A DNA stretch of 63,421 nt, filler included, from Stramenopiles sp. TOSAG23-6 (lineage: Eukaryota), in the NCBI GenBank assembly GCA_900128565.1. It is 36 parts of 36 records of this genome, joined end to end, with 100 filler letters (N's around TTAATTAATTAA, not from the genome) between each part and the next. Parts side by side here need not be neighbours in the genome. Positions count along the whole stretch, not along the records: positions 8,898 to 10,571 come from LT638716.1; 35 more parts are not named here. One strand, written 5' to 3'. This document shows, piece by piece, positions 9,462-10,571 of the stretch (position 1 is the stretch's first letter; each line of letters opens with the position of its first letter). Under the pieces are notes generated by a model. That model was given only the letters and a program-made list of their open reading frames with translations. It had not been told where the DNA came from and made no database searches. The translations under genes and the position numbers were made by a program.

Positions 9462-10571
9462 TTATCCAAAATCTGTTAATTGTATTTTAAGTTCCTTTAC
9501 TCGGCGTGCTAATTTTCGGATTGTCGGTAATGTTTGCGCTTTTTCTAACATCCACAATCTGTTTTTTGCTGCAAGTTCTTCTCTTCTTCTTTCAAATTGT
9601 TTCTTTTGAGTTTTTATCCATTCTTCAGACTGATTTTCACTATTTTGTTTTTCATTCTCCTTCCCACTCAATGTCTCTTTTATTGTCAGCGTACTACCTT
9701 TCCTATTTGTCATTTTCTGCGTTGTATGTAATTTTGCAATTTCTTCTTCCACAAATCTAATTTCTTTTTTATCTGATTCTGCTTGCAGTTTCCTATGTTG
9801 CCATTGTCTCAATGAGTTTCCTATGACACGTAATTCAACACGAATTTCTTCAGCATAAGAATCATCAATTTTATGTATTGTGAAAAAGTACAAAATCAGA
9901 AAAAATCACAAAAAAAATCGTTAGGTACGAAATTTCGTATGAAAAAAAAACTAGATTTGAAATTGAAAAAAAATAAAACATACATGCACCCTAAAGGATG
10001 ACTTTGATGTCTTCTTATCTAATTGTTTAGATTGTTCTATTTTTTGAGGATCTACAATTTTGGTCTTGGTTCCTTGTGGTGTAATGCTATAATATTCGTT
10101 GCTATTTTCTAAAGTAAATTTACTTTCGGCATTAGCATTTCGTCGTAGTTTCGTACGATGCTTAAAAAGATCATGTATTGTGAAAAAACAAATTAGTTAA
10201 GAAAAACTCGTTAGGTACGAAATTTCGTATGAAAAAAAAATTAAATTAGAAATTCATACGAAACGTACATATCTAGTGGGACTTAATTGTTGTTTTTGAA
10301 ATAGATTGTTTTGTTGATTTTGTATAATGCTTTGAACTGGGCTATTATCATTCGATTTCATATAAGATTGTCCAGTCGATTGATCTAGTACAAGCTCTAC
10401 AGGACATCGCGGTGGGCGTCTCTCTCTTCTCTCTGGAAATTTCAAATACCAAGGTGAAGACAAAATTTCCTCTTGTGTCTGATTTGTTCCAGCATCTAAT
10501 TTGTTTTTAGATGAAAACAAAATTTCCTCTTGTGTCTGATTTGTTCCAGCATCTAATTTGTTTTTAGATGA
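9462..10571 (-). CDS. Coiled-coil hypothetical protein, 3' part; GT-AT introns 10173-10268 and 9873-9983
   Basis: TRY|DLFKHR..FRVH|KIDDSYAEE in frame, both phase 0 with ..ACAATACAT ends. Confidence 0.7.

Follow-up and report, generated by a model that had tools for sequence, protein, structure and literature searches.

Bursts of intron gain are at present best explained by introners, and the known families came to light via annotations that take GY-AG or AT-AC ends for granted. The family described here, from a 63,421-nt stretch of DNA of Stramenopiles sp. TOSAG23-6 (the window), appears to end in AT, and came to attention through a pair of its introns at positions 9873 to 10268. Among the closest described systems are the fungal introner-like elements (van der Burgt et al. 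2012, as summarised in PMC9860276), near-identical introns of ~100 nt that occur in unrelated genes and are strongly biased towards genes and the sense strand. In that summary they lack terminal inverted repeats (TIRs) and target-site duplications (TSDs), each copy carries its own splice signals, and sense orientation prevails; the window family resembles them in all these respects. It differs in its AT end, the fungal elements having ordinary splice ends as far as that description goes, and in its host, a heterotrophic stramenopile.

The introners of algae and other protists (Micromonas, Aureococcus, Symbiodinium, Chrysochromulina; Gozashti 2022, PMC9860276, citing Huff 2016) share with it a marine protist host and the nature of an intron-generating repeat family. 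They are described there with TSDs of 3-9 bp and/or clear TIRs of at least 6 nt and with GY-AG ends, whereas in the window no locus-specific duplication is detectable and the end is AT. The introner elements of Amoebophrya, as described in PMC7789003, are likewise repeated non-canonical introns of a marine protist, with short direct repeats over the exon/intron boundary, and standard gene predictors fail on them. Their ends pair through inverted repeats of 8-20 nt, their direct repeats measure 3-5 nt and their terminal dinucleotides are inconsistent; here, in contrast, the GT..AT ends are uniform, the repeat is at most AT and the ends pair over 3-4 bp without covariation. Physarum polycephalum's expansion of U12-type introns, in the preprint account (10.1101/2020.10.12.336362), also combines mass intron gain with an extended RTAT.. 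5' motif and with GT-AT and AT-AT boundaries. Its proposed origin is a transposon with a short AT-rich direct repeat, and annotation had hidden its non-GY-AG introns. GT-AT is a minority in Physarum (17% of 1,014 non-canonical U12-type introns) and position 5 is C, whereas AT is the rule of the window family; the Physarum branch motif lies 10-12 nt from the intron end and matches a changed U12 snRNA.

The window probably harbours one very abundant introner family of spliceosomal type, present about once per kb in unrelated genes and removed exactly from GT to AT. The span singled out by an earlier note on this DNA, 9873 to 10268, runs exactly from the 3' end of one family intron (intron 1) to the 5' end of another (intron 2; Table 1). 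The two share 62 nt at 87% identity in a repeat search, and their last 15 nt are identical; an exonic AT stands before both donors and both introns end in AT. Removing intron 1 from GT to AT leaves 71 open codons, counting both sides, against 11 and 17 when the end is shifted by -1 or -2; for intron 2 the figures are 73 against 4 and 21.

Several pieces of evidence place this pair in a large family: a 14-nt palindromic core is found 29 times in the window with at most one mismatch, for 0.03 expected; a profile built from 14 copies yields 69 matches in 63 kb, about one per kb of non-N sequence, with E-values down to 8e-18, a number that includes a few matches on duplicated scaffolds and two in which the palindrome is read on the opposite strand; the copies sit in host genes with no relation to each other (VPS13, ABC-type, TUTase-like, transketolase, Rad17, NSF, PIP5K/PIKfyve, Raptor). 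A typical member is ~95-125 nt long. It opens with GTATGT or GTACGT, rarely ATATGT (consensus RTATGTTTT, 5' junction AT|GTATGTTTT), and the donor is followed by the palindromic core adjoining CCTAAC, T-rich sequence and a conserved 3' block with ACAT as its last bases. CCTAAC, which fits the general major branch consensus CTRAY, lies at a median of 40 nt from the 3' end and forms with its neighbours the most invariant columns of the alignment, while the 3' block is most conserved 5-20 nt before the cut. Every copy with inspected flanks sits in sense between open reading frames (ORFs) of the same strand. In about a fifth of the introns the core-plus-CCTAAC module occurs twice in tandem, in units of ~60-75 nt (donors 17651, 28917, 29388, 50956, 62471 and 62655, all on the minus strand); these two-core introns are internal duplications or fusions of two copies, not nested insertions.

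Such likeness between introns of unrelated genes, reaching well beyond splice signals over nearly the whole intron, is what introners are defined by; judged on sequence, the earlier note was right to name them so. To judge by the density, most of the genome's introns would be members of this one family. As an alternative, ordinary old introns might share an unusually strict and extended splice-signal grammar, with no mobility at all; some small eukaryotes have very strict intron signals, and the canonical introns of the window share parts of the 5' and 3' motifs. This is hardly credible as an explanation, as the likeness includes stretches with no known signal role, subfamilies exist besides the tandemly duplicated modules, and the four introns found in a PIKfyve-like gene are absent from a homologous ORF (P0123, below).

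The cut from GT to AT is indicated by reading frames, by homology and by a copy outside the window. Thirty-one copies with both ends on one scaffold were fixed by coordinates, in a donor/acceptor catalogue that is partly hand-curated and whose 3' ends were chosen by hand. GT..AT gives strictly the best frame in 20 of these 31, and ends shifted by 1 or 2 nt are best in three and four. Copies #53, #45, #13 and #5 have donors without a preceding AT, yet keep the AT end and the frame. Twelve of 30 copies bypass an AG that stands past CCTAAC and ahead of the AT end, so AG is not needed as 3' end of the family.

Homology bears on the junctions of one gene, the PIKfyve-like gene at 61771-63421 (minus strand), which holds four family introns (Table 1). 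Once these are removed, its product and P0123, an ORF of 237 residues that runs without interruption on an ENA contig (65% identity), align over 115 residues in a single block free of gaps (score 382). Reading copy #54 as GT..ATT introduces a gap and lowers the score to 371; if #53 or #52 is made to end 2 nt away on the 3' side, the alignment shrinks to 77 or 76 residues. Joining the exons at #52 completes the Met codon in the conserved MDYS motif, which is present in P0123 and in PDB chain 7k2v_P. An AT-AC reading of #52 is impossible, as the intron would end in GT. The AT acceptor proposed by the earlier note is thus supported, at the level of sequence, by both frames and alignment. A public gene model of this region (P0121; 61935-62279, minus strand; EukProt label GSMAST32...1701.1) has both exons 100% identical and joins them as ..ESH|VVVAKH.., against the homology-supported ..ESH|GKRVVAKH..; its junction fits a predictor forced onto nearby canonical GT..AG sites.

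Outside the window, the 20-nt core pattern matches a single locus in metagenome contigs (JGI contig L001), the 24-nt pattern none; the 20-nt pattern has no match in viral contigs. The copy on L001 reads cat, GTATGT..ACAT, gg, and its removal from GT to AT leaves 47 open codons against 13 and 34 with shifted ends. By word match, five seawater poly(A)/RNA libraries contain 6-9% of the words. Library contigs from four runs of two studies, aligned to 8898-10571, pile up on the two intron cores, the summed depth at 9906-9961 being 861, 12,756, 90 and 9,667. There are 20 to 364 such contigs per run, mostly 85-99% alike, and in all four runs they end in unrelated sequence, which means that the family is real, multi-copy and present in nature, and not an assembly artefact. 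One exon contig is also present (9534-9702, 100% identical). Three joints among the library contigs link the cores of different copies and were discarded as repeat artefacts. Excision at the DNA level, as in ciliates, was considered but not favoured, since 5' splice-site and branch-like motifs are present in the copies and RNA libraries contain the cores.

Two further genes gave no usable junction. In the TUTase-like gene at 12444-14115, the AT end of the intron at 12930-13019 yields ..VVKFW.., which we take to be a Cid1-like motif, and the nearer CAG does not; the following exon shifts frame, so the case is not counted. In the NSF gene (intron 47105-47201), no PDB entry matches the upstream exon, and alignment of the downstream exon starts only at residue 14. 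The consensus motifs of PIP5K, Cid1 and branch sites were used as general background, not computed.

A number of points weigh against the GT..AT reading. In 11 of the 31 copies the frame test gives no information or points the other way, owing to short exons, frames that stay open through A/T-rich introns, and scaffold ends. The gene that hosts introns 1 and 2 returned no homologue for its 63-residue exon or its 136-residue exon (searched in the 'longer' length class), so that both junctions depend on ORF continuity. None of the library contigs aligned to 8898-10571 in the four runs bridges an exon-exon junction, and splicing is neither shown nor denied by them. One family member, in the PIP5K-type gene, uses a canonical AG end (Table 1). 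A copy at 28611-28710 (minus strand), which contains several N, ends in ..ACAC rather than ..ACAT, and no simple in-frame junction uses ACAC. Lastly, the assembly is in fragments, part of it chimeric, and misjoins could account for some two-core introns.

The second feature of the family is the AT ahead of the donor. The earlier note had put exonic AT at about two-thirds of donors and had seen AT at the intron end as well, and both estimates hold. AT precedes the donor in 24 of the 31 bounded copies (23 if copy #54 is re-read), the others having AC (three copies), TG, GT, TC and GA. An automatic donor picker found it in 26 of 41, a set that includes three duplicate scaffolds and at least one wrong pick. 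Within long ORFs, AT precedes 184 of 1553 GTs (11.8%), which gives binomial p-values of 6e-17 for the 31 copies and 8e-15 for the 41 picks. The next exon begins with G in 19 of the 31. At the other end, the profile projects a 3' AT in 33 of 37 cases, a measure independent of the hand-chosen ends; the four deviations are two inner module ends of two-core introns, one end off by 2 nt and one at a probable misassembly. The exonic AT is a real site preference, with consensus AT^G, and most likely not a target-site duplication.

Duplication was the core of the first model in the earlier note: a DNA transposon resembling a miniature inverted-repeat transposable element, with GTAT..ATAC ends, would duplicate a 2-bp AT target, the right-hand copy would serve as acceptor, and splicing would restore the message. 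The excess of AT before donors speaks for it. So do the six best-scoring copies, all AT-preceded, although these scores depend on truncation at scaffold ends, and the match at -3 within the AT-preceded subset, slightly raised at 12 of 24 for 8.7 expected (p=0.07); both observations tell at the same time against a non-duplicating route of spread. Introners that recruit one splice site from the TSD are documented in PMC9860276, and the non-AT sites (30%) could partly reflect later mutations of the exon. A strictly AT-specific TSD is possible for the AT-preceded copies, where duplication of AT and insertion past an AT would leave identical DNA and are indistinguishable in principle, a limit that the authors of PMC9860276 state for AG.

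The sites without AT argue the other way, and make a duplicated AT an improbable source of the acceptor. All seven copies whose donor lacks a preceding AT still end in AT. Copy #53 (62499-62655) splits a Thr codon, ac|c, and Thr is conserved in four of four homologues (P0123, P0125, P0129, P0130); the insertion target was therefore AC and the terminal AT belongs to the intron. Copy #54, when re-read, follows a conserved Pro codon (cc|). The inverted repeats reported at the ends exist as a short feature of the consensus and go little further. Counting the AT flanks, the perfect terminal complement is at least 6 nt in seven of the 31 copies, 4-5 nt in five and at most 3 nt in 19, and never exceeds 7 nt; intron 1 has 6 nt of it and intron 2 has 5 nt. 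The two ends do not covary: 5' GTAT and 3' ATAC are not associated (8/10/5/8, Fisher p=1.0), and none of the six GTACGT copies shows a matching GTAC ahead of the final AT. A repeat search returned no TIR of 8 nt or more apart from A-runs against T-runs, and no antisense copy was seen among those with inspected flanks. Locus by locus the flanks show no clear match beyond AT, with 14 of 31 at -3 for 11.1 expected (p=0.15) and 15 at -4 for 12.9 (p=0.13). A domain scan of 79 ORFs, out of 141 kept, found no transposase, reverse transcriptase, Rep or helicase domain, and the 1.7-kb scaffolds could not hold an autonomous element.

The other model in the earlier note invoked a TG..CA element that would enter between A and T and leave no duplication, in the manner of rolling-circle elements and with a subterminal hairpin. 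Helitrons insert between A and T, have 5'-TC..CTRR-3' ends and a 3' hairpin, and encode Rep/helicase. For AT-preceded copies this model predicts the same DNA and message as the other readings, a small AAATATTT palindrome is present within the 3' block, and the copies are strand-asymmetric. It fails at the seven of 31 sites that are not AT; moreover, the family ends are GT../..AT, unlike those of Helitrons, and no Rep/helicase domain appeared in the ORFs scanned. The predicted folds are weak, with no conserved structure beyond a 4-pair consensus and single-fold z-scores of -1.7, -5.0, -1.3 and -0.9, three of the four not significant. Such an element is thus a most improbable origin.

An introner family with its own splice signals would work as follows. 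Each copy would bring a strong 5' site, the branch-like CCTAAC, the T-rich stretch and the 3' block, and would be spliceable wherever it landed in sense. It would be removed from GT to AT, its last base being T where other eukaryotes have G. Spread might follow a non-duplicating sense-strand route, for example reverse splicing followed by reverse transcription and recombination; the reverse-splicing route had been proposed for fungal introner-like elements, as reported in PMC9860276. The insertion site AT^G mirrors the 3' junction of the intron, ..AT|G, as expected if insertion reverses splicing or if selection keeps a good exon context. The sense-only orientation can also be explained by selection in a compact genome, which weakens it as a sign of the route. 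A non-duplicating sense-strand route is given somewhat less than an even chance, a DNA transposon with a preference for AT comes second and is rather unlikely, and the remainder is left open. The gain looks recent in the one gene that can be compared, in which P0123, P0125, P0129 and P0130 are uninterrupted at the four PIKfyve-gene intron positions. That a spliceosome makes the cut, which spliceosome it would be, and how the copies spread are what we infer from these features.

The canonical introns of the window bear on the nature of that spliceosome. A non-family GT-AG intron in the transketolase gene ends in ..ACAATACAG, the same context as the family end ..ACAATACAT. A leucine-rich repeat (LRR) gene carries a second type of repeated intron, also GT-AG, and six exons of that gene measure 66 nt under GT..AG and 68 nt under GT..AT. 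GT-AG and GT..AT introns thus have their 3' context in common, with either G or T possible as last base, and the host splicing machinery appears to accept both. A wider proposal, that the spliceosome of this lineage accepts U as last intron base and that a single AT-ended introner family made most introns of the genome, is put forward tentatively. The U may pair with G or A at position +1, a speculation drawn from one A-first copy.

An alternative is that the introns are a massively expanded class of the minor spliceosome, U12-type or hybrid, as in Physarum, with the branch site in the 3' block and not at CCTAAC. That machinery would then explain why G or A is tolerated at +1 and why the last dinucleotide can be other than AG. 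The family 5' consensus RTATGTTTT differs from the Physarum U12-type RTATC(C/T)TTT at position 5 only, and in the preprint (10.1101/2020.10.12.336362) GT-AT, together with AT-AT (8%), is among the commonest non-canonical U12-type boundaries. One window copy is best read as ATATGT..AT, the AGs skipped in about a third of copies lie 7-20 nt past CCTAAC, and the strongest 3' conservation falls 5-20 nt from the cut. Position 5, however, is G and not C, which fits a yeast-like major 5' site (GTATGT) equally well; CCTAAC agrees with the major branch consensus; and the GT-AG introns of the window share the GTACGT 5' end and the 3' context ..ACAATAC-A-G. According to the same preprint, U12-type introns have a 5' RTATCCTT and a branch motif TTCCTTRAC near the 3' end, to which the 3' block of the family (TTCC/TTCAC..AAT, 5-15 nt from the end) bears only a loose likeness. 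An Rfam scan of the window returned no family. A minor-type class is considered unlikely.

As far as the literature searches reach, no published family with a 3' AT as a rule was found at such density in this lineage. No paper came up that links introners with MAST, and the titles and abstracts listed contained nothing pertinent that links GT-AT ends with protist spliceosomes, or MAST-3 with splice sites. In PMC5778133, 'intron' occurs twice, in the methods only, and 'splice' does not occur; its Table 1 lists 3,289 and 2,694 genes for the MAST-3 assemblies against 4,652-8,537 for those of MAST-4. These low counts may be related to predictors forced onto canonical sites. The 2025 survey PMC12130899, by its own statement, discarded families with unfamiliar ends unless they were confirmed by transcripts, and a supplement of PMC9860276 includes single-cell stramenopile assemblies with 0 annotated genes, a kind of assembly that screens based on annotation cannot assess. 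The case bears on how new introns spread and on how far the rules of splicing can drift. Should a GT..AT introner family that saturates the genome be confirmed, an introner can spread with a non-AG acceptor, the natural chemistry of the 3' splice site is more flexible than in the textbook view, and annotation-based surveys miss AT-ended families. If the wider proposal on the spliceosome of this lineage also holds, the gene catalogues published for these uncultured flagellates carry systematic splicing errors, and their host is a natural system in which 3' splice-site recognition and introner spread can be studied together.

About 36 scaffolds, each 1.65-1.78 kb long, make up the window; they are ordered by falling length and joined by N44-TTAATTAATTAA-N44 linkers (e.g. 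10572-10671), so that adjacent genes are not physically linked. The overall GC is ~30%. The proteins encoded in the ORFs are ordinary for a eukaryote: VPS13 N-terminus, transketolase, Rad17, ARID, JmjC, EMP70, myosin, polyketide synthase, PIP5K, Raptor and NSF. The best match of the EMP70 ORF (93% identical) and a match of a PIP5K-type ORF (100% identical) both stand under EukProt labels that begin with GSMAST32; from these labels, the host would be an AT-rich, MAST-3-like marine stramenopile. The features of the pair and of the comparison introns are collected in Table 1.

Table 1. Positions in the window of the intron pair, its host gene and the introns used for comparison.
Feature	Position	Strand	Description
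Family intron 1	9873..9983 (111 nt)	-	exon ..cat, then GTATGT .. core .. CCTAAC .. CACAATACAT, then aaa; profile positions 1-106, 56.4 bits
Centre of intron 1	9920..9939	-	14-nt palindrome 9926-9939, then in sense CCTAAC at 9925-9920
Family intron 2	10173..10268 (96 nt)	-	exon ..atat, then GTACGT .. core .. CCTAAC .. CACAATACAT, then gat; 49.1 bits
Centre of intron 2	10210..10229	-	palindrome 10216-10229, CCTAAC at 10215-10210
Downstream exon of host gene	9465..9872	-	coiled-coil-like; no Pfam family, no homologue
Middle exon	9984..10172 (189 nt = 63 codons)	-	in frame; no database homologue
Upstream exon of host gene	10269..10571	-	extends to scaffold end
LRR gene, second repeated intron type	14341..15536	-	GTACGTG..ATATAG, mostly 105 nt, canonical GT-AG
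Non-family GT-AG intron, transketolase gene	18264..18362	-	GTACGT..ACAATACAG; Transketolase_N profile positions 1-29 and 30-166 on the two flanking ORFs
Family member with canonical end ..GTACAG	44383..44536	+	only the AG end joins the IMDYSLLLG exon to the Pfam-supported PIP5K exon stop-free
PIKfyve-like gene intron	62055-62168	-	GT..AT; homology test
PIKfyve-like gene intron	62275-62471	-	GT..AT; homology test
PIKfyve-like gene intron	62499-62655	-	GT..AT; homology test
PIKfyve-like gene intron	62713-62877	-	read ATATGT..AT; homology test

The upstream exon of the gene that hosts introns 1 and 2 contains a tandem repeat of ~58 nt at 10455-10571, at the scaffold end, which may be an assembly artefact. 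Two scaffold pairs, 17758-19426 with 19527-21195 and 51254-52907 with 53008-54661, have identical ORFs and profile matches at equal offsets and may be redundant contigs or alleles. Scaffold 30131-31794 is an inverted self-duplication, in which 30351-30451, 30663-30725 and 30846-30904 on the minus strand are mirrored by 31474-31574, 31200-31262 and 31021-31079 on the plus strand, and it looks like an amplification chimera. On scaffold 31895-33558 (plus strand), two family copies lie back to back, 2 nt apart, at ~32059-32270, after a UVB_sens_prot exon and before a RabGAP-TBC exon. A reading of the two as one AT-AC intron was dropped, as the flanking exons come from different domains and the join is probably a misjoin at the repeat. 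The minus strand of 40709-42367 is a single open frame in which Pfam Microtub_bd and Kinesin positions 1-73 are fused directly to myosin head positions 127-521, with no stop or intron in between; it is either a chimeric join, by amplification or assembly, or an odd fusion. At 42513-44126 (minus strand) a long ORF without introns codes for the ketosynthase portion of a polyketide or fatty-acid synthase of type I (ketoacyl-synt, Ketoacyl-synt_C, KAsynt_C_assoc).

A telomere-like (CCCTAA)2 is present within some family introns, just past the donor (GTAC..AAAACCCTAACCCTAA) or near the 3' end, at ~16745-16760, ~62630-62648 and ~35485-35500 (minus strand). It also occurs 3' of the gene on the metagenome contig L001, at ~1790-1820. 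NPNPN-type peptides are seen in several ORFs and may be the telomere-like repeat read as coding sequence.

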